Source: a virus. Taken from it: 64,000 bases of DNA. Positions 1,525 to 51,531 of the stretch are shown piece by piece; the stretch's first letter is position 1; each line of letters starts with the position of its first letter. The translations under genes and the position numbers were made by a program. The notes below the pieces were generated by a model that searched no databases, was not told where the DNA came from, and worked only from the letters and a program-made list of their open reading frames with translations. Location: the UHGV virus genome UHGV-0125682; one strand, 5' to 3'.

Positions 1525-4500
1525 TTGAACAAGTCAGTTACTTCCGCGCTATCCGAAGCAGCAGACATTAACAGTGTTATTGCGCTGGTTTCTTCATTAG
1601 AGAGGCGAGAAACACGCCAGGGGCGCAGTAGTTACGTAGTCACCAGTAAAGGGGCAGAGGTAAAGACGGCTTTTAAGGTCGTTGATGCCAGCAGTCTGAT
1701 CATTTCGAACAACCTTGACGGTACGATTAATCCGGCCTTCCCGGAAGAACTCCAGCCACGTGACCGTACACGGCTATCAAGCAAACTCCAGGTTAACCGT
1801 ATTGCCTCCAATTTACGCCCGGCACAATTAACGGATTCCGGCATGAGCAGCCACGGAGCGCCGATAGTTGGTCCGGACAACGTTGTTGAATCCGGCAACG
1901 GAAGGAGCATGGGTATCTGGCGTGCCTATGAGCAAGGGCAGGCGGATGAATATCGCCAGTACCTGATCGATCATGCAAAAGAGTTTGGTCTGAATCCTGA
2001 CGACATTTCACAAATGTCTATGCCCGTATTGGTGCGAGAAAGACTCACAGATGTAGACCGCGCACAATTTGCCCGCGATTCAAACATCAGCGATCTGCAA
2101 GAGATGGCTGCAAGTGAAAAAGCGTATGCGGATGCGCAATTTCTCACTGAGAGCGTCATGGCGCTATTTAATCCTTCAGATGATGGAAATCTACTGGCGC
2201 GGTCCAATGATGCGTTTATTCGTGCGTTTTTGCGCGAAATAGGTGATACGGCGACGGCAGGTTTGCTTACTGCCGATGGGCGTCCAACGAAACAACTTAT
2301 CGACCGCATCCAGAATGCAATTTTTGCCAAAGCGTACAAGGATGAAAGGCTTGTTCGGCTGGTGGCGGAAGAGCCAGATCCGGAAATGCGTAACATTCTT
2401 ACCGCATTAAATACGGCAGCCAGCGATTTTGCGCAAATGCAGTCGCTTTCAGGTGATGTTCACCATGACACGGTAACCGGACTGGTAGACGGTATAGAGC
2501 AATTGAATGGTCTGGATAAACAGGCTATTGCCGCGCTACAGGAAGCAATTAACCTTGTTCGTGAAGCAAAAGATAACGGTCAGGCAGTAGAAGAGGTGAT
2601 CGCACAGCGTGGATTGTTTGGAGATAGCACTCCGGAAGCAGAAGCGCTTGCTCTGTTTATTGTTGCCAACAACCGAAGCGCTAAGCGAATGGGGGCAGCT
2701 TTCAAGAAACTGGCGCAAAAAATTAACGATGAACTTATTCACCAGCAACAAGCGTTAGGCGATATGTTCGGCGGCGGAGATGTCGATCTGCGTAGCATTT
2801 TATCTGCCGTTTCTGATGAAATTGAGGCTGAGTATGGCGAAGGTAAAGGGCTTAATTTCGCCATGTTTGAATCGGTTTCAGGAGAGGTCGAACCATACAT
2901 TTCAAAGCTAATTGCTGATGCGACCAGCGTGGAGGACTTGATCCGAATCGTGAAGGTGTCAGAAAAAATTAAGGAGTCCGCAAAAAAAATAAAGCGCAAT
3001 GTATTTTTGGAACTTGGTTTTTATATTCGCAATGTCACCGTTAATGAGATTAAGGAGTGGGCTAAACGTTATGGATACAGCGACGCTGTGTTAACAACGA
3101 TGTTATTGTCTTATCAACGCAGCAATTTTTATGCTAACGCACTGCGTGACGCGATTGAAAAAGGAGATGAAGCTCCTTCGCTCGCAGATGAAAGAAATAT
3201 TGATTGTGATATTGAAACGTTTTGCAACATATCAGAAGAAGGCGTGCCCGCTGAACAATTTATACGTGTTTTACATAATGCAGCAAAACATATTCCTGAT
3301 GACTTTAGTATTGATGAATTGCGCAATGGTTGTCTTGTTTGGTTAGGTAACTATTTAAAATCTCCAGCGTCTATTGCAGAGAAAACAGCTTTAAGATTTA
3401 GAAAGGAAATGAATAAAGCTGGAAGCGCAGAAGAGATGGTGTGCATAATCCAAAATACTTTGAAGTTATTCAAAAAGAGCTTGCATAATATCGACGATAT
3501 TATGGCGGCTGGTAGGAAAATAACAGCCAGTGTCGGAGTTAGCTCTGAACTAACGGCAGAGGAGATCGCTGATGCGTATATTGAGACACTTGTCAGGCTT
3601 AAGGAGATAGTGGAATTAGCAGAGCATTCCTCATATTACGGAATCAAGGAGCGTGTTGACTTTACTATAGAACAAATCAATAAAGTTAGGTCAAATAAGG
3701 AAAAACTCACTGACTACCTTGCTGATGTTTTGCACCAGAATGATCATGGGATTGGATATGATCTGAAAAAAATGCTTGTTTTTAATCTGGACATACCGGA
3801 AGACTTGCAAGCAGAACTATATGAAATAGCTTCATTAACACGTGGACAAAAAGCCTATCCTAATGCGCTTGAAAATGTAGTACATAAAAAAGTCAGAGCC
3901 GCATTTGACATGATTCTTGAATCGTCAAATGTGTCACATGACCAGTCTAAGGAATGGAGTCGTGGGATTGCTATTTCTGATGAAGCAGAGCAGTTAAGTG
4001 GTCACGATAATGAAACTTTCTCCCGTAAAGCATACAGTATTCGCGAGACGATTGAAAAAGCCTATATTATTTCAGGAGGGACTTTATCTACATTAAAAAA
4101 TATTAACCACAAGAACAATGTTCGTGCTTTTGCAAGTCGAAATGGGAATATAACAATTGATGCTAATAGTGATCACGAGCGTGTATTATGGCATGAAATA
4201 GGTCACCATATAGAACATTCAAATCCCCATCTATTGGAGAGGGCCAAAGCCTTCATTAAATCAAAAACTAACGGTAAAGTTTCTTATCATAATATTGGTA
4301 GCCGTGGCAGTGCTGAGTATTTGGTGCGAACCGACCTAAGTCATGGATATATGTCTAAAATTTATATGGAAAATACGGTAAGTTCTGTCAGCGGCAGATT
4401 TATATCAAAGCCACCTGCATTAAGCAATTGCAGGGCGACTGAGATTTTTTCTATGGCCTTGCAGATGTATGCCGATCCGGAGCAGGCGACTAACTCTGTA

Positions 4501-9641: not shown

Positions 9642-9670
9642 TTGATCTTCCATGTTTTCAGGCTTATATT
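9642..9670 (+). promoter_or_regulatory. sigma70-like promoter for immI-like module 1
   Basis: TTGATC, 17-nt spacer, TATATT, just downstream of operator. Confidence 0.45.
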
Positions 9671-9916
9671 CATGCCGTCGTAGCAAATTCTGCGACCGGG
9701 TTTGACAGCCTGAATACTTACGCGGACAACCGCACATTTCCGATATTGCGGTATTTTTGTGTCCGTAAAACCACGTTACGCCCGAATTATGGTGGGGCGT
9801 GATGGGGAGGCTTCGGCCTGCTGGTTTCGTAAGTGCCAGTCTGTCAACCCTGTCACGTCCTGCCACCTGTTTGACAGCGGGTCGCAGGTTGTTTATCAAC
9901 TTACGAGGCCGTAACT

Positions 9917-10141
9917 ATGGTTAATGCCAATCCTTGCTCACGCCCAGAATTCATCTGGCGTTTCCACTCCCTGCAAAAACACTGCGATCACTTCGCAATT
10001 GCCGCAACCGAAAAAGAAGCCCGTTCTCTGATCCCTGATCAGTATGGTGTTCTTACTGGTCGTTTCTCTACTTCCCCACAACCAAACACTAATCCCTGGT
10101 ATCGCAATATTACCAATCCCGGAATTGCGGAGGCACACTGA
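9917..10141 (+). CDS. Icd-like small protein (74 aa) preceding antirepressor
   Basis: Paralog of 50316..50531 (shared EFIWRF and CQKH motifs); stop/start overlap with ant-like gene. Confidence 0.5.
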   Translation: MVNANPCSRPEFIWRFHSLQKHCDHFAIAATEKEARSLIPDQYGVLTGRFSTSPQPNTNPWYRNITNPGIAEAH

Positions 10142-10848
10142 TGGAAATCTGCATTCTTGAAAAGCCATCAATGACCAGCATTGAGATCGCGGAGCTGGTG
10201 GGAAGTCGTCACTCTGATGTTAAACGCAGCATCGAAAGACTTGTTGCTAAAGGAGTTATCCAACATACGCCATTGGCTACAGTTGAGAATAATCAATCAC
10301 TTAGCCCTAATAAATACACAAAAGCCTATTTCTTCGAAGGCGAGCAAGGCAAGCGCGATAGTATTGTCGTCGTCGCGCAGCTCTCTCCCGAATTCACCGC
10401 CCGGCTGGTGGACCGCTGGCGCGAACTGGAAGAACAAGTACGCCAGCCGTTGACCGAAATAGAGATGATCGCCGCAATGGCTGCAAATGCAGTTCAGCAG
10501 CAAAAGCGGCTTCATGTTGTTGAGTCAAAGGTTAGTCAGGTGGTAGAAACCGTCGAGCAAATCAAGAAGGGCAACATGCCAGATGGTTACATTGGCTACC
10601 GCCAGCTGGCTGCGAAATGTGGACTGACCGAAGCCAAATGCCGCAACCTGGTTAATGCTTACCGGATTCCCACCGATACACATGAGTTTTTAACTCCAGA
10701 GGGGGTATTGTCGCGTCGTTCCATCGTGGCCTTATCTCCCTTCATGAATGCTTTTAACCGGATGATGTCGGAGGCTGAACACCGAGGAAAACGCTGGTAT
10801 CACCCCAAAATGGGGCAATTCCAGGTGATCGGTTGGGGAGGTGAGTGA
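10141..10848 (+). CDS. antirepressor-like protein (Rha/Ant-type)
   Basis: N-terminal MTSIEIAELVGSRHSDVKRSIERL signature; paralog of 50531..51472. Confidence 0.7.
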   Translation: MEICILEKPSMTSIEIAELVGSRHSDVKRSIERLVAKGVIQHTPLATVENNQSLSPNKYTKAYFFEGEQGKRDSIVVVAQLSPEFTARLVDRWRELEEQVRQPLTEIEMIAAMAANAVQQQKRLHVVESKVSQVVETVEQIKKGNMPDGYIGYRQLAAKCGLTEAKCRNLVNAYRIPTDTHEFLTPEGVLSRRSIVALSPFMNAFNRMMSEAEHRGKRWYHPKMGQFQVIGWGGE

Positions 10849-11045
10849 TGGACATCATGCAGGCGGTAAAAAAAATCAGGGAAGGACAGGCTGAAGTGTG
10901 CCGCCGTAAAGCATGGAGTGTTGGTGTATGGGCCTGGCCTGATAATTACTCTACTACCGGATGGTTTTGTATTAATGGACTCCAGATCCGGGAAGTTGAT
11001 TTATCGACGGCTGATATAGTCGGTAATGATTGGATCGTGACTTGA
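10845..11045 (+). CDS. small protein homologous to C-terminal domain of the second antirepressor
   Basis: VCRRKAWSVGVWAWP and DWIVT match the C-terminus of 50531..51472; ATGA overlap. Confidence 0.5.
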   Translation: MMDIMQAVKKIREGQAEVCRRKAWSVGVWAWPDNYSTTGWFCINGLQIREVDLSTADIVGNDWIVT

Positions 11046-11713: not shown

Positions 11714-14700
11714 TTGGACAAATTACTTCATTCAATCAGTGAAGCCTCCAGCTTAGGCGAACTGATTGAAATTGTTAGTCGGTTGCATAAATTACGTGCT
11801 GTTGCGACCTTTGGCGTCAGGAAAGCCGATGGCGTCAGTATTCAGAAAACACGCCGTGCAGCAAACAATGCCGCAGTAAATCTTCTTAATTCCCTTCCGC
11901 CCGGCTTCGATGGGGCGAAATTAACTGACGAACAACGTCAGATTCTTGCTGGGTATACCGGTGAAGGCGGCCTGACAGATGGTGAGGGCAGCCAATACGA
12001 ATACTACACGCCACAGTTTATGGCTGAAGGTATATGGGATCTGTTTGCTGACTACGGTATTGATGGCGGGCACGTACTGGAACCATCAGCGGGCACAGGT
12101 ATTTTCCAGGAGACAAAACGGCAGGGCATGATAATGACCAGCGCCGAACTGTCTCCGATTTCTGGTCGAATAAACCAGCTTTTGCACCCGGAAGACGATG
12201 TGAATATCGGGGCGTTTGAGGCGCTGGCGGCGAAAGATGCAATGTATGACCACGCTGTTGGTAACGTACCGTTTGGTGAAGGGCGTTCCGGCGTTGCCGG
12301 GCTTGATCCGGCATATGCAAACGAGAAGAACGTTGGCAATTACTTTGTGCTGCGCACGATCGACAAGGTTAAGCCAGGTGGGCTTATCGTATTGGTGGTG
12401 CCGAATGGCATGACCGATGGTACGAAATATAAAAAATTGCGCGATAAAGTCAGCCGTAAAGCGGAATTTTTGGGCGCACATCGTATGCCTTCCGGTACGT
12501 TCAGCGAATCTGGAACAGATACCGTGGTGGACGTATGGGTATTGCGTAAACACCCGGAAACCTTCCTGGAGATGATCCCCGACACGGATGATGCAACGCT
12601 CAAATCGGCAAACGTCCTTTGGGATACCTTCCTCAAAGGGAAATGGTTTACAACCGATGGGAAGCGATTTGTTTACGGCGACATGGAACGTACCAGCTTC
12701 CGCAATACCCTGGTGGTGAAAAAAGACGGTCGTGTATCCAATGAGTCGATGAAAACCGCGCTATCTCGTCGCTTTGATAGTCGCATCAATTGGGATTTGC
12801 TCGGCGTAACTACTCAGGCATGGCAGGGCGCGAAAGTGGGCGATAAACGCCTTGTAGGCGGTATCTGGCATGAGTTTGATGGTCTGAAATGGGTTAAGGA
12901 CACGACAACCAAATCCTCCGCGCTTGATGTAAGTCGATATGGTGTTTCGACGTTTGGCGATCTGCAGATCGCGTTCCAGTCAACAAACGGGATTCTGGCT
13001 TTGTCATGGGACCAGATATCGGCGATCGCGTCCGACTATCCATCGGTTGTCAGTGATGAAGTGGCAGCAATGATTCGCTTTGCTGGCAAACAGCGAGAAA
13101 AAGACAGGGAGCGCGTTATGCGCGGTGCGTTGATAGGGCAGTTGATCAACAAGGCACTTGATTTGCGTAACCTGGGGGTGAACGTTGATGACAAACTGGC
13201 AGATGCATCCCGCCTGGCGGCAGCAGAAGTTGCGAAGTATGGACCACCGCACGCGATTAAGCTGAATGGGCTTGCTGAAGCTGGCGCTAAAAACTGGATG
13301 ACGTTCACTGGCAATGTGAAACAGGATGGTTCCACTTCTGACCTTCTGGCAGGGCGACTTGATGTAACGGATGGTGCTGCCGGTATTGACTTTACGCGTC
13401 CTGAACAAGTGATAGCACATCTTTTTAGTGATGTAGCCCTTAATCCTATAACGCTGGGCGACTTTCGTGAGGCGTTTGCTGGTGAACTGCCAGAGGACGA
13501 CGACGCGGTCCTTGAATACCTGGCGAAATTTGATGATATCGCTATTGATGGGTATGGCTGTCTGCTGCCGATGGACCGCGCCACCAGCGGCGATGTTGCA
13601 ACCAAAACAGCACTGCTGGTGGGCTGGCGTGATGCGTCAACAGGTGAGCAGAAAGCGAACTTTGAGCGTCAGTTGGCGAAAATCGAAGAGAAACGCATTT
13701 TCACGCCACTAAATAAAGTCACCGTTAATCTGAATGCCCGCTGGCTGGATCGCCGCTTGATAAAAGAGTTCCTGGCAGAGCAGGGCTATGACGAGTTTAA
13801 GTACACTGAACCTGATCTGAAGGTCGTCGATGGCATTCTGGTATCTCCGGACGATTACGAAGGTAAGGACGGGGTATTTACCGGCTATCAGCTACGAACC
13901 GTAAACGGCAAAAACGGGAATGAGTTCAAGAAGGCCAACAATAAAGACGGCTTCCTGAACCAGTTAGAAAACTACCTGAACGGTGTTAAACCGCGTGGGC
14001 AGAACGCTAACGAGTACCTGGATAAAATTGCTCAACTGGAAGTTAGTTTTAACGACTGGTTACGCACTCACCCGCAGGCTGATCAGATAGCCCGCGAGTA
14101 TAACGACGCATTCAATGGTTTCATTCCGTTCACGCATTCTGACGCACCGCTTGGCCTGGAAGGGCTTAGTGGAAAGCGCATTCCTCTTACTTATCAGAAT
14201 GAAGAAGTTCGGCGCTTGTCAGAAGATGGGCGCGGCATCATGGGATTTGGTACCGGGCTGGGTAAAACCACGACCGCGCTTGCGCTTGAGGCGTATAACT
14301 TCGAAACAGGTCGCACTAAACGCACGTGTATTGTTGTTCCGAAGGCGGTTTATCAGAACTGGTATCACGAGGCACAGAGTTTCTACAGTGCTGATGCCTT
14401 CGCCAATATGATGTTTATCGGTTTGGATGAAGTTCGTGATGACAGCGGAAATATTCTGACCGCGCCGGTGCTTGATGAAAATGGCGAACCACGCCTCGAC
14501 AGTAACGGGCAGCCTCTTACCAGAAATGTTGTGAAAGAGTCCGCCAGCGCCGTTATCGTTCAGCGTATGAACATGATCCCGTCGTCAAATTGGCGAACGG
14601 TCATCATGACAAAAGAACAATTCGCGTCTATCCCGCTACGAGAAAAAACCATCGAGGAGAACTCACAGCAAGCTGTCTTTAATGCTGTGGAAATGGGGCG

Positions 14701-17700
14701 TCTTGACCTGGCGTCCGGTAAACACCGTGATGCGCAGAAGAAGAACAAGATTAAGGATCAGGCCGCGAATACCGGTACAACGAAGAAGCAGAATATCCCG
14801 TACTTTGAGGATATGAACTTCGATAGCGTGATTGCCGACGAGGGGCATAATTACCGCAACTCCTTTAATGCCGGGCGTGAAGCGGGACAACTGGCATATT
14901 TGCCTAACCCGGCAGTATCCAAGATGGCCCGCGACATGGCTGTAAAAGCTGCGTACATGATGAAACGCAACAACGGGCGTGGTGTAGTCATGCTGACGGC
15001 AACTCCGCTGGTGAACAGTCCGATTGATGCCTTCAACATGCTGTCTACTGTCATTCCGCAGGAAGAGTGGATGCGCATGGGTATTGTTACGCCGGATGAT
15101 TTCGTTCGCGTGTTCGGCAAAACAGCCACAGTTCAGGTTCAGAAAATTTCCGGTGAGGTGGAAGAGAAGCAGGGGCTGGTGGGCTTCCAGAACCTTGATG
15201 GTCTGCGTGGTATTTTCCACCGTTGGACCACTCTGAAGACTGCCGCAGATGTCGGAGCGACGGTTAAAATTCCCGATATCATCGAGAACACCTTGCAGAT
15301 CCCGATGACAGGGGAGCAGGAGGCTGCTTATGAAGAGCTTCGTAAGCGTGCTCAGGAGTTAAGTCGCAATGATGAGCTGACAGTCGATGAAAACGGGCAT
15401 ATCACTAACGACAAACCGGATGATTTCATCTTCTCCATCATCCGCGACATGGATAAGGTTGCTATAGATCCGGATCTGTATGCCAGTGCGATTACATTCC
15501 AGTTCCCCGTTGAGCTTGCAGACAAGGTAAAAGCTATTGCTGATGCCCTGCCAAAAGTCGCAGGCGGTAAAGTGGCAGATGATGCAGACGAGGCCGAAGA
15601 AGACGGCGCTGGTGGACTGGTCAGTACGCGTACCAGCAAGGTAGTGAAGACCACCTTTAGTGAACATCCGGCGCATGTTGAAATACGCGCCAGCATTGAA
15701 CTGGAAGCTGAAATACTGAAGGCCATTGCTGCCGCCGGGATTGATCTGCAGCAGGTATCACACCCCATCCCACCGAAGTATGCCGCGCTGATCGAAAACC
15801 TTCGTGAAGGTCTGAAGAACGGTAAACAAATTGTCTTCATTGATGAAAAAGCCCAGCACCAGAAGCTGCGCCGTATTATCGCCAGTGCACTGCAAATGCC
15901 GGAGCAGGAGATAGGCATTATCAATGCGACGACCGTTAGCCAAGCTGGCGGCATCAAGCTGAAGAAGGTGAATAAACCGACTGAACCTACTCCGAATAAA
16001 AACGGTGAATACAAAGAAGGGGCATGGGAAACCTACTACAGCAAACTTGCCCAATATGAGGATTATCTCTCAGCTAAAAATGATGCTGGCCTTGAGGGCA
16101 TGGAAGGTATTGCCGCCGACTATAACGAAGGTCGCACGCGCATCATAATCTGTAACAAGAAGGCTGAAGTAGGTATTAACCTGCACATCGGGACAACCGA
16201 TATCCACCACCTGACACTACCCTGGACACCAGCCAGTATCGACCAACGAAATGGGCGCGGTGCGCGCGTAGGGTCACCGCAAGAGAAGGTCAATGTTCAC
16301 TACTATTGTGGCAAAGGCACATTCGATGACTTCCGTCTGGATACGCTTAAACGTAAGAAAGACTGGATCAAGATGGTGATGACCTCCGACATGTCAGAGA
16401 TCGCCAATGGTGATGCGGATGATGCTGATGAACGCGCCATTATGCTGGCGGCAAACCCGGAAGAACGCCGCGCAATCATGGCTCGCCAGGCGCAAGAGCG
16501 TGAAGAACGTCTGAAACTGAAAGCACAGCGCGAGGCCAACAATGCTCTCGATATCTACCTGAAAGCGGCAAACGCCGCCGGAAAAGATATCGGCATGATG
16601 GAGACAGAACTGAAAAGCGCGATGGAACAGATAGAGTATTACCAGCGAAATCTTGACGACCTGATAAAAGCGGGTACGAACAGGAATGGGCAAAAATACG
16701 CGCTTGAGCAGTTGAGTAGCTACAGAAAACGTGCGCGGGTGCTGCGGTTTGCGATCACCAGGGCAAAAGACGCGGATACCATAATGAAACGCTCTCGTGG
16801 TGATGTGGAGCGCGCTATTAAGTCTGGTGTGCTGGATATCAGTATCGATGTTATTCAGAACCCACAGGAATATATGCGCACTGACAAGAATATCCTGTTG
16901 CATAAAGGTAGTTATTACCGTGCAGTCATTGATGATCGCGAAACAACAGCGATTGTCCGGGTGGAAAAAATTGACGGTGAAAAAGCACAATACCTCTGCC
17001 GTATCGCCTGGCTGGATAGAGCAAGTCGTTACGCTCGAGCACCGGGGTCAATCGTTACATTGCCGTTTGACTCTGTGATTGAAGCGGTAACTTTTGAAGA
17101 GGGGGTAGCTGAATCGCGCGCAACGGCTGCGCGAGGTGTTCAGTGCCACCAGCTATCAACAATACTTACTCGCGATCAGTTCTATGATGCTATTCGCAAT
17201 GGGGTAATGAATGTTATTGCTGGTAAACCTGGTAATGCATGGGGCGGTGGGTCAGCTATTAAATACTGGGCATATCGCACAGATGATGGTCAGATCGCGC
17301 TGTCATCGGCCTATGATGGCGTGATAGGCCAAAAAATCGGGCGAGCATCGGATATAGCACCTGAGCGATGGATATATCCTGATGGCAACGACGAGGCGCT
17401 GAAGCGTGAAGTGGCAAAAATACAAGCCAGTGATAACCCGCTGAATATCGTGGACGGCGAGGGATTCCTCCAGGCATTGTATGGGTATGATTACACCCAG
17501 GGAATGCAGGCATGGGGCGCACAGGCAACGATGGATGATGTTGCCCATGAGTTCGAAAACTGGATGGCTGGGCGTGGTCTGTCAGGTCGTTCGCTTAATA
17601 AAGTCACTTCTGAAGATATTCTTAGCTTGTTCCGCAAACCGTCCGGAGAAGGTCTGGAATCATTCTGGAGGACCGTGCTGGCATACCGTTTATTCCAGGG

Positions 17701-18550
17701 CAGGATGAAAGCCTTTAGCAATATCGATGATATTGAACGGATGTTTAATCAGGTCAAGATCGCGAAAATTAAGGCGAAGATCGAAAAAACACGTTCTGCG
17801 CTGGTGGCCTGGCGCGATGCATTGTTTGAGCAATATAAATCACTCAGTGATGCAGATGGATGGGCGGCATTGGAACAGCTGGCGAATAATGGGGTAGATG
17901 GAGCGAAACTCGCCATTGTTCAGGCTGATAACCCCCTGGAATCACCGGCAGCACAGTGGATTAAGGTGGGGGCTGTCATCAATGCATTTGATGAAAAACA
18001 CATTAGTAAGGACGATTTTGCTGATGCTGTTTCTGTTAATCGCCTGGTAGAAATGGCTACCCGCCGCGCCCGTGAGTTGAAAGACGGCGACTATGTGAAT
18101 GAGTTGCCGGATACGCTCAAATCGGCAACGTGGCAGGACTATGTATCGCTGAAAAACGGCGGGGCCACTGAATCAGAGATCGCGGAAAGGCTTGAGCAGG
18201 CTGAAAGCAAAAGAGAAGAGCAGGCGGCAGTGGCTGAAGCCAGAGCTGATGAAGCGGCGAATGATGACTATATCATTGTGGTTAATGATAAGCCGATTCG
18301 CGCTAAGGCGCGTGTTCGCGGGCGCTGGTGGAGCGTCAGCGAGGACGTTGGCGCGGTTTATCTCATTGCCGACCAACCAGGTTCCTCGACAATACGGAAC
18401 GCCAAAGACGCGATTAAGAAGATTGGCGGACGTTTCTGGAATTTTGAAGCAAACCCGGTTGCTGATGTGAACTTTGACCGTCCTGCATGGATGGTATCTA
18501 CGCGTTACTCGGTAGATGAACTGCGTAAAATAATCGCCGATGCGGCCTAA
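11714..18550 (+). CDS. darB: DarB-like antirestriction protein: N6-adenine methyltransferase fused to DExH helicase
   Basis: 2278 aa; AdoMet motif EPSAGTGIF, NVPF catalytic motif, Walker A GFGTGLGKTT around aa 842, DEGH motif around aa 1040. Confidence 0.8.
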   Translation: MDKLLHSISEASSLGELIEIVSRLHKLRAVATFGVRKADGVSIQKTRRAANNAAVNLLNSLPPGFDGAKLTDEQRQILAGYTGEGGLTDGEGSQYEYYTPQFMAEGIWDLFADYGIDGGHVLEPSAGTGIFQETKRQGMIMTSAELSPISGRINQLLHPEDDVNIGAFEALAAKDAMYDHAVGNVPFGEGRSGVAGLDPAYANEKNVGNYFVLRTIDKVKPGGLIVLVVPNGMTDGTKYKKLRDKVSRKAEFLGAHRMPSGTFSESGTDTVVDVWVLRKHPETFLEMIPDTDDATLKSANVLWDTFLKGKWFTTDGKRFVYGDMERTSFRNTLVVKKDGRVSNESMKTALSRRFDSRINWDLLGVTTQAWQGAKVGDKRLVGGIWHEFDGLKWVKDTTTKSSALDVSRYGVSTFGDLQIAFQSTNGILALSWDQISAIASDYPSVVSDEVAAMIRFAGKQREKDRERVMRGALIGQLINKALDLRNLGVNVDDKLADASRLAAAEVAKYGPPHAIKLNGLAEAGAKNWMTFTGNVKQDGSTSDLLAGRLDVTDGAAGIDFTRPEQVIAHLFSDVALNPITLGDFREAFAGELPEDDDAVLEYLAKFDDIAIDGYGCLLPMDRATSGDVATKTALLVGWRDASTGEQKANFERQLAKIEEKRIFTPLNKVTVNLNARWLDRRLIKEFLAEQGYDEFKYTEPDLKVVDGILVSPDDYEGKDGVFTGYQLRTVNGKNGNEFKKANNKDGFLNQLENYLNGVKPRGQNANEYLDKIAQLEVSFNDWLRTHPQADQIAREYNDAFNGFIPFTHSDAPLGLEGLSGKRIPLTYQNEEVRRLSEDGRGIMGFGTGLGKTTTALALEAYNFETGRTKRTCIVVPKAVYQNWYHEAQSFYSADAFANMMFIGLDEVRDDSGNILTAPVLDENGEPRLDSNGQPLTRNVVKESASAVIVQRMNMIPSSNWRTVIMTKEQFASIPLREKTIEENSQQAVFNAVEMGRLDLASGKHRDAQKKNKIKDQAANTGTTKKQNIPYFEDMNFDSVIADEGHNYRNSFNAGREAGQLAYLPNPAVSKMARDMAVKAAYMMKRNNGRGVVMLTATPLVNSPIDAFNMLSTVIPQEEWMRMGIVTPDDFVRVFGKTATVQVQKISGEVEEKQGLVGFQNLDGLRGIFHRWTTLKTAADVGATVKIPDIIENTLQIPMTGEQEAAYEELRKRAQELSRNDELTVDENGHITNDKPDDFIFSIIRDMDKVAIDPDLYASAITFQFPVELADKVKAIADALPKVAGGKVADDADEAEEDGAGGLVSTRTSKVVKTTFSEHPAHVEIRASIELEAEILKAIAAAGIDLQQVSHPIPPKYAALIENLREGLKNGKQIVFIDEKAQHQKLRRIIASALQMPEQEIGIINATTVSQAGGIKLKKVNKPTEPTPNKNGEYKEGAWETYYSKLAQYEDYLSAKNDAGLEGMEGIAADYNEGRTRIIICNKKAEVGINLHIGTTDIHHLTLPWTPASIDQRNGRGARVGSPQEKVNVHYYCGKGTFDDFRLDTLKRKKDWIKMVMTSDMSEIANGDADDADERAIMLAANPEERRAIMARQAQEREERLKLKAQREANNALDIYLKAANAAGKDIGMMETELKSAMEQIEYYQRNLDDLIKAGTNRNGQKYALEQLSSYRKRARVLRFAITRAKDADTIMKRSRGDVERAIKSGVLDISIDVIQNPQEYMRTDKNILLHKGSYYRAVIDDRETTAIVRVEKIDGEKAQYLCRIAWLDRASRYARAPGSIVTLPFDSVIEAVTFEEGVAESRATAARGVQCHQLSTILTRDQFYDAIRNGVMNVIAGKPGNAWGGGSAIKYWAYRTDDGQIALSSAYDGVIGQKIGRASDIAPERWIYPDGNDEALKREVAKIQASDNPLNIVDGEGFLQALYGYDYTQGMQAWGAQATMDDVAHEFENWMAGRGLSGRSLNKVTSEDILSLFRKPSGEGLESFWRTVLAYRLFQGRMKAFSNIDDIERMFNQVKIAKIKAKIEKTRSALVAWRDALFEQYKSLSDADGWAALEQLANNGVDGAKLAIVQADNPLESPAAQWIKVGAVINAFDEKHISKDDFADAVSVNRLVEMATRRARELKDGDYVNELPDTLKSATWQDYVSLKNGGATESEIAERLEQAESKREEQAAVAEARADEAANDDYIIVVNDKPIRAKARVRGRWWSVSEDVGAVYLIADQPGSSTIRNAKDAIKKIGGRFWNFEANPVADVNFDRPAWMVSTRYSVDELRKIIADAA

Positions 18551-22982: not shown

Positions 22983-23059
22983 GATGGTGTAGCTCAGTAG
23001 GATAGAGCAGCAGCCTTCTAAGCTGTCGGTCGGTGGTTCGAATCCACCCACCATCGCCA
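22983..23059 (+). tRNA. tRNA-Arg (anticodon UCU)
   Basis: Manual cloverleaf fold: 7-bp acceptor GATGGTG/CACCATC, TTCGAAT T-loop, anticodon loop CTTCTAA, encoded CCA. Confidence 0.85.
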
Positions 23060-23061
23060 AT

Positions 23062-23137
23062 GCCGGTTTAGCTCAGTTGGTAGAGCGCCTGCCTTGTAAG
23101 CAGGATGTCAGCGGTTCGAGTCCGTTAACCGGCACCA
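23062..23137 (+). tRNA. tRNA-Thr (anticodon UGU)
   Basis: Manual fold: acceptor GCCGGTT/AACCGGC, anticodon loop CTTGTAA, T-arm AGCGG-TTCGAGT-CCGTT, CCA. Confidence 0.85.
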
Positions 23138-24974: not shown

Positions 24975-25050
24975 GGCCCTTTAGCTCAGTGGTTAGAGCT
25001 GGCGACTCATAATCGCACGGTCACCGGTTCAAGTCCGGTAGGGGCCACCA
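24975..25050 (+). tRNA. tRNA-Met or tRNA-Ile2 (anticodon CAU)
   Basis: Manual fold: acceptor GGCCCTT/AGGGGCC, anticodon loop CTCATAA, T-arm ACCGG-TTCAAGT-CCGGT, CCA. Confidence 0.8.
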
Positions 25051-49835: not shown

Positions 49836-50003
49836 ATGACTGTTCGCTACCTCAACTTTCAAATCAAGAACATTACTGGCGGTTGCTATGACTGGTTTGT
49901 CACTCTCGGAAAAGAAGTGATCACCGGGAAGCTGGATGAAGTGAAAGCTAAAGCAATGGCCTACGCCTGCAAGCAAGTCAGGAAGAAATCCGCCAAAGCA
50001 TAA
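49836..50003 (+). CDS. small hypothetical protein (55 aa), not in ORF track
   Basis: ATG ORF followed by terminator-like hairpin plus T run at about 50112..50132. Confidence 0.35.
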   Translation: MTVRYLNFQIKNITGGCYDWFVTLGKEVITGKLDEVKAKAMAYACKQVRKKSAKA

Positions 50004-50315
50004 AACACTGACTGTTGCGCCCTGGCATTATCGTGGGGTATATTTCTACGGCACCTTAGAAAAACGGGTGCCGGGATTGGAACCCCGGATAATGCAAAAG
50101 GCGACACAGACGCCGAAAGCGTCTTTTTTTGTGTCATGCCATCGCACAGCCATACGTAGCGTTTAGCTCAGAGATCAATGGTAGTGCTGGCTGGGCTGCC
50201 GAAAGGCAGGCCGGTTCCCTTTTGCGCCGGTAGTTCCAACCCAGTCAGTGCTACCGCCATTGAGATTGGAACCTCACGCGGTAGCTCCTTAAATTAGCAA
50301 AAGGAGGCTGCCAAT

Positions 50316-50531
50316 ATGGCTACTATCCCTACCCCAACTCATTCTGAATTTATCTGGCGTTTCTATTCCTGCCAAAAACACCTGTATATCTGCGTCATGG
50401 CTGCTACCGAAGCAGAAGCTCGTTCATACCTTCCTGAAGAACCCTGCATTTTTGCCGCACGCTTCACTCTTGATGCGATGGAGATCCTAAATTACTGGAA
50501 TCTGCCAATGAACTGCGTGGAGGTGCACTGA
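50316..50531 (+). CDS. Icd-like small protein, copy 2
   Basis: Paralog of 9917..10141; AAAGGAGG RBS. Confidence 0.5.
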   Translation: MATIPTPTHSEFIWRFYSCQKHLYICVMAATEAEARSYLPEEPCIFAARFTLDAMEILNYWNLPMNCVEVH

Positions 50532-51472
50532 TGAATCTGTCCATCTCTCAAAAAGCGACAATGACCAGTATTGAGATCGCGGAACTGGTAGGTAAGCGTC
50601 ATGATAATGTGAAGCGTACCATTGAAGTATTAACTAAAGGTGGTGTCATTCAATTTCCTCAAATTGAGGAAATTGAAAATAAACAATCAGTTGGCCCTCG
50701 TCGATTTTCCAAGGCTTACATATTTGAAGGCGAACAAGGAAAACGAGACAGCATCATTGTCGTCGCGCAGCTCTCTCCGGAATTCACCGCCCGGCTGGTG
50801 GACCGCTGGCGCGAACTGGAGAATGCCCGGGTACAGTTAAAATCAAAAGCCGAAATTCTGGCTGAAATGGCGCAAATGCATCTTGAGCATGAACGCCGGA
50901 TCAACGCCGTAAATGCCCAGGTAGCCGAGGTATCAGCACAAGTATCGATGGTCGCTGAAACACTCGAGCAAATAAAGAAAGGCAATATTCCGGAAGGCTA
51001 CATTGGCTACCGCCAGCTGGCGGCGAAATGTGGCCTGACTGAAGCCAAATGTCGCAACCTGGTTAACGCTTTCCGGATTCCCACCGATACGCATGAGTTT
51101 TTAACTCCAGATGGTTTGCTTGCGCGACGCTCCATTGTGGCCCTGGTCCCCTTCCGGAAAGCCTTTAAGCAGGTGATGTCGGAGGCAGAACCACGCAATA
51201 AACGCTGGTATCATCCAAAGATGGGGATGTTTCAGGCAATCCACCATCCTGTGCCTGAAAGCCCAAAGGATAATCTGTCACTACATACCGTCAGAGAGAA
51301 GATCAGGACTGGATACGCAACAGTGTGTCGTCGTTCTTCCTGGCCTGAAGGTATATGGGTGTGGCCCGAAGGTGGATCACGAAAGCACTGTCGCACCATC
51401 CGTGACGGGAAAATCCATGCTATTGATTTAGCTCCAGAGGATGTTATTGCTATGGACTGGATTGTTAGTTAA
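50531..51472 (+). CDS. antirepressor-like protein (Rha/Ant-type) with fused C-terminal domain
   Basis: Paralog of 10141..10848 plus C-terminal region matching 10845..11045. Confidence 0.7.
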   Translation: MNLSISQKATMTSIEIAELVGKRHDNVKRTIEVLTKGGVIQFPQIEEIENKQSVGPRRFSKAYIFEGEQGKRDSIIVVAQLSPEFTARLVDRWRELENARVQLKSKAEILAEMAQMHLEHERRINAVNAQVAEVSAQVSMVAETLEQIKKGNIPEGYIGYRQLAAKCGLTEAKCRNLVNAFRIPTDTHEFLTPDGLLARRSIVALVPFRKAFKQVMSEAEPRNKRWYHPKMGMFQAIHHPVPESPKDNLSLHTVREKIRTGYATVCRRSSWPEGIWVWPEGGSRKHCRTIRDGKIHAIDLAPEDVIAMDWIVS

Positions 51473-51478
51473 ATGCTG

Positions 51479-51499
51479 CATCCCCGGCGACGCCGGGGA
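51479..51499 (+). terminator. hairpin terminator
   Basis: atccccggcgacgccggggat hairpin; weak T tract. Confidence 0.5.
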
Positions 51500-51531
51500 T
51501 TTAACTGCCAAATAATCGGATTATCCGCACG

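Follow-up and report, generated by a model that had tools for sequence, protein, structure and literature searches.

The interval from 50015 to 51472 of UHGV-0125682, a virus genome analysed here as a single 64,000-nt window, very probably represents a complete C4-type antirepressor operon resembling immI of P1. The window is a D6-like phage-plasmid, i.e., a plasmid-prophage of E. coli, and this operon (module 2) is well supported as its second C4 antisense-RNA antirepressor switch with recognition sequences of its own. The system is of an ordinary and known type, and a second c4/icd region has already been published for D6-like phage-plasmids (PMC6799933). Sequence and comparison gave the order, on the + strand, as a promoter-like site, an IsrK-type RNA with its terminator, the C4 RNA, site a2, site b2 at the Shine–Dalgarno sequence, an icd-like ORF and an overlapping Rha-type antirepressor gene; at the sequence level, this layout is that of P1 immI. 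The initial annotation had proposed a second immI-like module with a functional RNA from the sequence alone. This proposal was borne out, as the Rfam C4 model scored above its gathering score in both modules and the stem partners were kept and covaried in 38 distinct related leaders.

Leader RNA, C4 RNA and their complementary sites

A putative sigma-70 promoter was placed at 50015–50044 (−35 TTGCGC, 50015–50020; 18-nt spacer; −10 TATATT, 50039–50044) by alignment to module 1 and P1 only. Its columns aligned one-to-one with the module-1 promoter (TTGATC-17-TATATT, 9642–9670) and also with the annotated −10 of P1 P1c4/P51b. The consensus promoter scan made no call on the + strand near module 2, because the −35 fits the consensus at only three of six positions. 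Transcription would start near G50051.

The first RNA encoded is an IsrK-type leader (50051–50129) of three hairpins, which carries the target mimics a1 and b1. The Rfam isrK model (RF01394) matched it over the full model with 62.5 bits against a gathering score of 50, whereas c4-a1b1 (RF03163) remained below its gathering score (22.4 vs. 46.7 bits). The leader hairpins were kept in 98.7% of cells among the 38 distinct relatives. An intrinsic terminator detected by the terminator scan at 50108–50130 (AGACGC-CGAAA-GCGTCT followed by seven T) had an invariant stem in the same relatives and coincided with the 3′ end of the isrK match. Since this strong terminator lies between the promoter and C4, expression of C4, icd and ant needs read-through or a further promoter; inspection by eye of the interval between the terminator and C4 yielded no convincing second promoter.

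Site a1 (TTGGAAC, 50077–50083) lies in the 8-nt loop AUUGGAAC enclosed by CCGGG (50071–50075) and CCCGG (50084–50088). It forms the core of the upstream copy of a decamer, GATTGGAACC, whose sole two occurrences in the 64 kb window are at 50075–50084 and 50264–50273. The decamer repeat and its placement in this hairpin loop had been recognised in the initial annotation, and both stand, although the upstream copy had been assigned to 50074–50083. Site b1 (GCAAAAGG, 50094–50101) pairs with b′ in the C4 RNA.

RNAs of the C4 class are processed to a stable form of ca. 77 nt and repress in trans. The C4 gene of module 2 occupies 50174–50261 and matched Rfam C4 (RF01695) over the full model (1–87) with 76.7 bits, against a gathering score of 45. 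Its fold, a long closing stem with two hairpins, is held by compensatory changes: 13 of 27 internal pairs change on both sides, with 99.7%–100% of cells paired in 38 distinct sequences. Minimum-energy folding of the complete leader (z = −4.6) gave this fold as well. Site b′ (CCTTTTGC, 50218–50225) is exposed in the 12-nt loop of the second C4 hairpin, and a′ (GTTCCAA, 50233–50239) lies in the unpaired junction. Downstream, target a2 (TTGGAAC, 50266–50272) occupies the loop of a 4-bp hairpin (50261–50276), and target b2 (GCAAAAGG, 50297–50304) overlaps the Shine–Dalgarno sequence AAGGAGG (50301–50307) of the icd-like ORF. Both a and b thus comprise three exact site copies, and the window contains no further occurrence of the target words. 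The second triplet, b1/b′/b2 (GCAAAAGG/CCTTTTGC/GCAAAAGG), had escaped the initial annotation; GCAAAAGG has its sole two copies at 50094 and 50297 and its complement CCTTTTGC at 50218, and this triplet is the one over the ribosome-binding site of the icd-like gene.

These assignments change the meaning of the 7-bp stem on which the initial annotation was built. Its coordinates were correct (GTTCCAA at 50233–50239 with TTGGAAC at 50266–50272, 44 nt before the ATG at 50316), but it is not a leader hairpin: the 5′ arm sits in the unpaired C4 junction as a′ and the 3′ arm is a2, so that the stem is the a′–a2 antisense–target contact in P1 nomenclature. A purely cis-acting GTTCCAA/TTGGAAC hairpin, attenuating transcription or translation with no RNA acting in trans, is physically conceivable, since one primary transcript carries both arms at a distance of only 26 nt. 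However, its 5′ arm is embedded in the 76.7-bit C4 fold with 13 compensatory pairs, and pairing of the arms in cis would create a pseudoknot, which the minimum-energy fold does not contain. Moreover, the third copy, a1, and the whole b triplet would be left unexplained, and we regard such a hairpin as highly improbable.

Covariation within families and predicted independence of the two modules

The sample for covariation comprised 38 distinct module-2-type leaders from related genomes. For a′–a2 and b′–b2 together, 100% of cells were paired and seven of 15 pairs changed on both sides (four of seven in a′–a2 and three of eight in b′–b2, each with 100% pairing). When the partners were slid by 1–3 columns as a control, pairing dropped to 26%–50%. 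The upstream sites behaved similarly, with a1–a′ paired in 99.6% of cells (4/7 pairs changing on both sides) and b1–b′ in 100% (3/8). The a1 of one relative (L034) has lost its complementarity to a′, so that pairing by a1 is perhaps not essential. On one backbone, the two alleles of a and the two of b were found in all four combinations. In 20,000 dinucleotide-preserving shuffles of the flanks, none gave all four complementarities, while the a pair alone arose in one and the b pair alone in six.

Module 1 has the same elements. Its a1/b1 leader (9664–9758) carries a1 (TTGACAG, 9702–9708) and b1 (ACTTACG, 9716–9722), followed by a terminator-like hairpin. The C4 RNA (9785–9870; Rfam C4, 69.6 bits) contains b′ (CGTAAGT, 9828–9834) and a′ (CTGTCAA, 9841–9847), and a2 (9871–9877), b2 (9899–9905), icd (9917–10141) and ant (10141–10848) lie downstream of it, all on the + strand. 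The module is 88.9% identical to the P1 c4–icd region. Its family showed the same pairing pattern as that of module 2, and the changes cluster in the six sites, where 24 of 42 columns vary vs. 18 of 199 outside them (p = 3.6e-11). The module-1 leader reached the gathering score of c4-a1b1 (RF03163, 55.9 bits) and matched isrK with 46.5 bits, under the gathering score yet spanning the whole model; in the Gifsy-1 leader, c4-a1b1 (48.1 bits) likewise overlapped the isrK match. Given this overlap in both loci, the two models describe one element. IsrK and the P1 a1/b1 leader appear to be the same element.

The initial annotation had read the contrast between the two modules, i.e., completely different stems with preserved spacing, as covariation-type support. 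The stems do differ, but TTGGAAC and TTGACAG share four of seven positions with a TTG core, and the spacing is similar rather than identical (the arms are separated by 26 nt in module 2 and 23 nt in module 1, and the 3′ arm ends 44 and 40 nt before the ATG, respectively). A joint alignment of both module families was misregistered around b′ and a2, and pair counts were therefore made per family. The comparison between modules is weak evidence, and it is the allele switching within each module family that provides the strong evidence for covariation.

The further suggestion of two independent specificities in one phage was supported by duplex predictions. Calculated on unpaired segments only (RNAduplex with stem nucleotides included was uninformative), cognate duplexes were predicted at −7.9 to −13.1 kcal/mol and non-cognate duplexes at −5.1 kcal/mol or weaker. 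Among 18 genomes with both modules, no allele was common to module 1 and module 2. As both the a and b alleles differ between the modules, the two C4 RNAs should act independently.

The regulated genes and the closest known systems

The icd-like ORF (50316–50531, 71 aa; D6 orf83) matched NCBIfam NF033153 (phage_ICD_like) with 49.4 bits against a cut-off of 25, and its product is 63% identical to P1 Icd. The ATG of the 313-aa Rha-type antirepressor gene (50531–51472; D6 orf82) overlaps the icd stop codon (TGATG). This antirepressor matched Pfam Phage_pRha at its N-terminus (37.3 bits) and PHROG 63 'anti-repressor Ant' (E = 1.8e-60), and is 65% identical to the module-1 Ant. In BLASTP comparisons, it proved unrelated to P1 Ant1 (E = 0.21), placing it outside the Ant1/Ant2 family, and had no similarity to Gifsy-1 AnrP or JL22 Roi; thus, the genes regulated in these systems are not homologous. 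A hairpin at 51481–51502 (TCCCCGG-CGACG-CCGGGGA with only three T) weakly suggests a possible operon end, and the terminator scan made no call there. In P1-type immI, a C1 operator (Op51/Oc4) overlaps a promoter upstream of the operon. No match to the P1 C1 operator consensus was found within three mismatches in the whole window, although this consensus may not be that of the D6-type repressor.

A 39-aa ORF (50178–50297; orf45/'Ash') starts at an AUG at the 5′ end of C4. It matched Pfam Phage_ASH (33 bits vs. a cut-off of 26) and nothing in an NCBIfam search. As a universal feature of C4 genes, an internal ORF was rejected: it is open in module-2 types and Gifsy-1 and closed in the P1 allele. 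The Pfam 'Ash' family is in part a translation of the C4 gene. PGAP names this ORF 'ash family protein' and, in the closest plasmid, flags the antirepressor as partial, which could indicate that 50178–50297 merely encodes a small protein of this family or that module 2 is a duplicate, silent or in decay, that has no function at present. Nevertheless, the icd-like and antirepressor ORFs are intact in the window and in D6, the fused form of Ant fits PHROG 63 up to its end, and the six sites remain complementary across several allele switches. Of 5426 complete E. coli genomes, 310 had the leader, which is also carried by P1-like phages, and 456 plasmids in PLSDB matched the region. Decay or a merely protein-coding role is therefore very unlikely.

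Module 2 shares with immI of P1 and P7 (c4–icd–ant1/ant2) the order of parts (promoter, a1, b1, C4, a2, b2 at the icd ribosome-binding site, icd and an overlapping antirepressor gene), the C4 fold, the similar Icd and the use of short complementary sites that set specificity and differ between heteroimmune relatives. It differs in having a Rha-type antirepressor and a leader that scores as isrK rather than c4-a1b1, and in giving no match to the P1 C1 operator consensus. The ortholog of P1 immI in the window is module 1, not module 2; megablast of the module-2 region matched D6, JL22, RCS47 and vB_EcoM-673R5 and gave no P1 match. Its direct homolog is the orf83/orf82 region of D6 and of the D6-like pYU39_89 (91.5% identity over the whole feature). 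D6 also has both modules and carries the same b allele, whereas its a allele is TTGAGAC/GTCTCAA/TTGAGAC instead of TTGGAAC/GTTCCAA/TTGGAAC.

Two further loci share parts of this arrangement. The second antirepressor insertion of the P1-like phage-plasmids JL22, RCS47 and pTZ20_1P has a leader 88%–96% identical over 50050–50452 of the window, a stretch spanning the IsrK-like RNA, C4 and part of the 5′ region of icd, and the same a and b alleles occur in it. Unlike module 2, it lies between pacB and c1.100 and precedes a Roi-type gene unrelated to Ant; its sole description in the literature is as 'two short hypothetical orfs and an antirepressor' (PMC6906374). In Gifsy-1 of Salmonella (isrK–STnc1160/orf45–anrP), a terminated IsrK-type leader (isrK, 79.3 bits) is likewise followed directly by a C4-family RNA (69 bits) and then an antirepressor gene, and C4 is flanked on either side by complementary a and b sites. 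There is no icd in this locus, where the antirepressor gene directly follows b2; AnrP is unrelated to the module-2 Ant, and Gifsy-1 is an integrated lambdoid prophage. The Gifsy-1 C4 region was taken as an ORF plus STnc1160 and compared with P4 rather than P1 (PMC4825925).

Proposed regulation and its implications

Genetic work on P1 defined c4 as a repressor acting in trans, and the P1 GenBank record annotates a1, b1, c4, a2 and b2 in order, with b2 at the icd ribosome-binding site. The C4 processing and repression steps reportedly go back to Citron and Schuster (1990 and 1992) on P1 and P7. A comparable arrangement exists in P4, where the CI RNA, a processed antisense RNA between complementary upstream and downstream sites (seqA/seqC), acts via premature transcription termination. 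By analogy with P1 and P7, the C4 RNA of module 2 would be cut from read-through transcripts, probably by RNase P, and would bind a2 and b2, blocking the icd ribosome-binding site. Translational coupling and polarity would extend this block to antirepressor synthesis, and the prophage would stay repressed because C4 blocks synthesis of Icd and the antirepressor. In an incoming phage with the same alleles, antirepressor expression would be prevented as well. The short terminated leader with copies of both target sites could titrate C4 and switch the antirepressor on, as suggested by IsrK of Gifsy-1 (PMC4825925).

Gifsy-1 provides the sole experimental evidence for a leader RNA activating an antirepressor in trans: IsrK binds Hfq and, when provided in trans, increased translation of the antirepressor over 100-fold (PMC4825925). 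In the same study, a cis mutation of a1 increased basal expression rather than decreasing it, a result that a simple decoy role of the leader does not predict. Applied to module 2, the published model for this homologous locus (PMC4825925) is a positive switch in which read-through RNA with a1–a′ paired in cis is inactive, the leader opens it in trans, and ribosomes translating the ORF at 50178–50297 reach icd/ant, so that C4 would not mainly be a trans-acting repressor. In all module-2-type variants and in Gifsy-1, this ORF remains open across C4, and its match to Phage_ASH also favours this model. In the P1 allele, however, the ORF closes after 14 codons, and every allele switch alters the peptide while RNA pairing is kept. 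Furthermore, a2 and b2 would be superfluous under this model, yet they covary strictly with a′ and b′, and the genetic definition of P1 c4 as a repressor also speaks against it. We consider it unlikely as the main mode of action, although it and repression by C4 are not mutually exclusive.

A link between IsrK and P1 a1/b1 would give the P1 sites, whose role the P1 record labels 'putative', a testable function. A broader and tentative interpretation, to which we assign a rather low probability, is that the two C4 cassettes form a double lock with independently switching sites, and that the a1/b1 leader is an IsrK small RNA, an anti-antisense trigger that acts in trans, titrates C4 and starts induction. 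Each module could then answer to a different signal. The four short recognition sites may switch alleles independently, through diversifying selection or frequent exchange. Were this the case, D6-like and P1-like phage-plasmids would diversify into many heteroimmune types, and shared alleles could create cross-immunity between both phage families.

Regardless of these interpretations, module 2 belongs to a familiar class of systems and lies where such a system is already known. Its leaders should be annotated as IsrK-type RNA and C4 RNA instead of 'hypothetical' or 'ash family' ORFs, and the allele tables constitute a natural set of compensatory mutants for antisense specificity. P1-like and D6-like plasmid-prophages often carry resistance genes in E. 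coli and Salmonella, and our results suggest that their immunity types could be read from four short sequences.

RNA elements and pairing sites of the second module

An Rfam search at gathering thresholds returned four relevant matches in the two modules of the window (module 1, ca. 9664–10848; module 2, ca. 50015–51472): a C4 antisense RNA in each (module 2: 50174–50261, 76.7 bits; module 1: 9785–9870, 69.6 bits), an isrK RNA in module 2 (50051–50129, 62.5 bits) and a c4-a1b1 element in module 1 (9664–9716, 55.9 bits). The GenBank record of P1 lists promoters, a1, b1, a 77-nt C4, a2, b2 at the icd ribosome-binding site, icd and ant, and the parts of module 2 follow exactly this order. The initial annotation had described a 7-bp stem formed by GTTCCAA (50233–50239) and TTGGAAC (50266–50272), with its 3′ arm ending 44 nt upstream of the start codon (ATG, 50316). 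Both arms lie exactly there, and in P1 nomenclature this stem is the a′–a2 contact. The upstream decamer GATTGGAACC, described as a repeat of the 3′ arm, is a1; it is indeed repeated (second copy at 50264–50273, none other in the 64 kb), at 50075–50084, one position further right than reported. The hairpin reported around it is present, with CCGGG (50071–50075) and CCCGG (50084–50088) enclosing the 8-nt loop AUUGGAAC. An overlooked triplet, consisting of GCAAAAGG at 50094 and 50297 only and its complement CCTTTTGC at 50218, is b1/b′/b2, and b2 overlaps the Shine-Dalgarno sequence AAGGAGG (50301–50307). In the C4 fold, the second hairpin presents CCTTTTGC in its 12-nt loop, and GTTCCAA lies in the unpaired junction ahead of the closing stem. 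None of 20,000 dinucleotide-preserving shuffles of the flanks reproduced all four complementarities. The stem could also be read as a purely cis-acting leader hairpin, but this is unlikely, as one arm falls within the well-supported C4 fold and such a hairpin accounts for neither a1 nor the entire b triplet.

A terminator scan identified a strong intrinsic terminator of the leader RNA (50108–50124 plus seven T) between C4 and a putative promoter, which was placed solely by alignment. No P1-type C1 operator was found in the window. In the minimum-energy leader fold, the icd Shine-Dalgarno sequence also forms a cis hairpin (50281–50312) with a UCCUU that lies upstream of it (GGUAGCUCCUU ... AAGGAGGCUGCC); this hairpin puts part of b2 in its loop and is not obviously conserved in P1-like variants.

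Maintenance of the pairings through allele switches

A search of IMG/VR via Icd yielded 80 module-2-type and 24 module-1-type loci, and the module-2 pairings were counted on 38 distinct leaders. The a′–a2 (7 pairs) and b′–b2 (8 pairs) helices were paired in 100% of cells, with four and three pairs, respectively, changing on both sides, and the internal helices of C4 contained 13 further pairs of this kind. When the partners were slid by 1–3 columns, pairing was only 26%–50%. The upstream contacts behaved alike (a1–a′, 99.6% paired; b1–b′, 100%). The changes are whole allele switches occurring in three places simultaneously: two a alleles (TTGGAAC, TTGAGAC) and two b alleles (GCAAAAGG, GTCAAAGG) appear in all four combinations on a single backbone, and P1-like contexts carry additional alleles. 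D6 itself has TTGAGAC where the window has TTGGAAC. The module-1 family has two a and four b alleles with 100% pairing in a leader that is elsewhere nearly invariant (variable columns: 24 of 42 in the sites vs. 18 of 199 elsewhere; p = 3.6e-11). We regard the anatomy of the module and the evolutionary maintenance of every pairing as established. The idea that module 2 is a dead duplicate is contradicted by its intact ORFs, its maintained pairings and its wide distribution, the leader being present in 310 of 5426 complete E. coli genomes and almost always plasmid-borne.

One locus (L034, 1201–1512) is a natural hybrid that combines TTGAGAC at a1 with TTGGAAC at a′ and a2. As the sole non-concordant triplet among ca. 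100 loci, it is either a recent recombinant or a sign that the a1 pairing is dispensable.

Two modules in a D6-like element

The module-2 region shared 91.5% identity with Escherichia phage D6 (74006–75658) and 99.5% with a 97-kb E. coli plasmid, and the window thus belongs to a D6-like plasmid-prophage. The D6 record annotates orf83 as ‘inhibition of cell division’ and orf82 as ‘putative anti-repressor’, with no RNA at the locus; its orf84 (3126–3425 of the D6 locus L001, opposite strand) spans the IsrK-like and C4 genes in antisense orientation and is probably a spurious call. The window also holds three tRNA genes (at 22983–23134 and 24975–25047) and a 2278-aa ORF (11714–18550) directly downstream of module 1.

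Module 1, which is 88.9% identical to P1 48210–48581 and contains P1's own a allele TTGACAG, is orthologous to the classical immI leader of P1; module 2 is a separate lineage of the same design. The earlier statement that the stems of the two modules differ completely is too strong, as TTGGAAC and TTGACAG are identical at 4 of 7 positions. The proposal of two independent C4 specificities in one phage is supported, because the exposed C4 segments are predicted to form stronger duplexes with their own sites (−7.9 to −13.1 kcal/mol) than with those of the other module (−5.1 kcal/mol or weaker), and because, among 18 genomes or contigs in which both modules occur, no allele is common to the two and the allele sets combine freely. 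In several D6-like contigs (L090, L092 to L098 and others), the module-1 leader matches that of P1 nearly base for base over the stretch that begins with the hairpins of the a1/b1 leader and extends to the start of icd, P1's own a and b alleles included. Judging from this sequence, D6-like prophages with such a leader should produce a C4 RNA of P1 specificity.

The first ORF of module 2 is Icd-like (NF033153, 49.4 bits; 63% identity to P1 Icd). The second, which begins at the icd stop codon (TGATG), has a Phage_pRha N-terminus, matches the PHROG ‘anti-repressor Ant’ and is unrelated to P1 Ant1. This 313-aa antirepressor corresponds to that of module 1 (235 aa; 65% identity) extended at its C-terminus by a domain of ca. 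60 aa, and in the closest plasmid the fused gene carries the PGAP label ‘partial’. The domain (51278–51472) is a separate 66-aa ORF in module 1 (10845–11045; 41% identical; phrog_7385), for which a weak, below-threshold match spans the whole Tad2-like (Thoeris anti-defence) profile PF11195 (E = 0.034).

Relation to isrK, portability and proposed mechanism

Knowledge of the C4 system dates back to 1990, and Rfam recognises both RNAs. Some Stx-phage records annotate ‘C4 antisense RNA’ and ‘isrK’ as adjacent, and the cassette has been described from P1-like plasmids as an inserted antirepressor located between pacB and c1 (PMC6906374). The initial annotation therefore read the module correctly, and the arrangement was already known.

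Rfam isrK (RF01394) belongs to no clan and c4-a1b1 (RF03163) to the C4 clan, and a 2025 review gives IsrK and c4 as unrelated sRNAs. Applied to the isrK gene of Gifsy-1 (L108, 14241–14330), both models nonetheless score above their gathering thresholds; there, an isrK match of 79.3 bits is overlapped by a c4-a1b1 match of 48.1 bits, and the isrK model aligns end to end, just below threshold, with the leaders of P1 (L106, 708–802; 35.1 bits) and module 1 (9664–9758; 46.5 bits). The two families represent a single element. The Gifsy-1 locus has the same RNA pair as module 2, with isrK, C4 (69 bits) and an antirepressor gene in succession and matching a and b sites; the ‘orf45/STnc1160’ of the IsrK paper coincides with this C4 match. 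In Gifsy-1, short IsrK in trans increased antirepressor translation > 100-fold and induced the prophage, and point mutations in the site read here as a1 abolished the effect (PMC4825925). The published IsrK model depends on translating an ORF that begins at the C4 5′ end. Such an ORF (50178–50297, 39 aa) is open in all module-2 variants, but it is closed after 14 codons in the P1 allele, and every allele switch alters its peptide. Translation is thus at most an addition to the antisense mechanism.

This plus-strand ORF starts at a conserved AUG, scores 33 bits against Pfam Phage_ASH (cut-off 26) and is an ‘ash family protein’ in the PGAP annotation of the closest plasmid; its Gifsy-1 version (orf45) is likewise open. 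Possible readings are an RNA gene that has been translated conceptually and a region with a dual function. Because an ORF within C4 matches Phage_ASH, we regard this family, at least in part, as a translated RNA gene.

The RNA cassette is portable. When D6-like and P1-like versions of module 2 are compared (50050–50452; 2501–2830 of the JL22 locus L107), the similarity covers the leader and ca. the first 45 icd codons, and homology ends there, inside icd. The downstream regulators are wholly different (Rha-type in the window vs. Roi-type in JL22, which has both a canonical immI and the second cassette, likewise between pacB and c1), and the controlled genes are unrelated among D6-like elements, JL22, Gifsy-1 and P1.

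Citron and Schuster reportedly found in 1990 and 1992 that C4 of P1 and P7 is cut from the operon transcript and binds a2 and b2, occluding the icd ribosome-binding site and thereby blocking antirepressor synthesis. By analogy, C4 of module 2 would be processed from the operon transcript and bind a2 and b2, so that the icd ribosome-binding site would be occluded and the antirepressor would not be made. Because the leader RNA carries both target mimics, its terminated form could plausibly titrate C4, as Gifsy-1 suggests. Silencing of the antirepressor would maintain lysogeny and confer allele-specific immunity.
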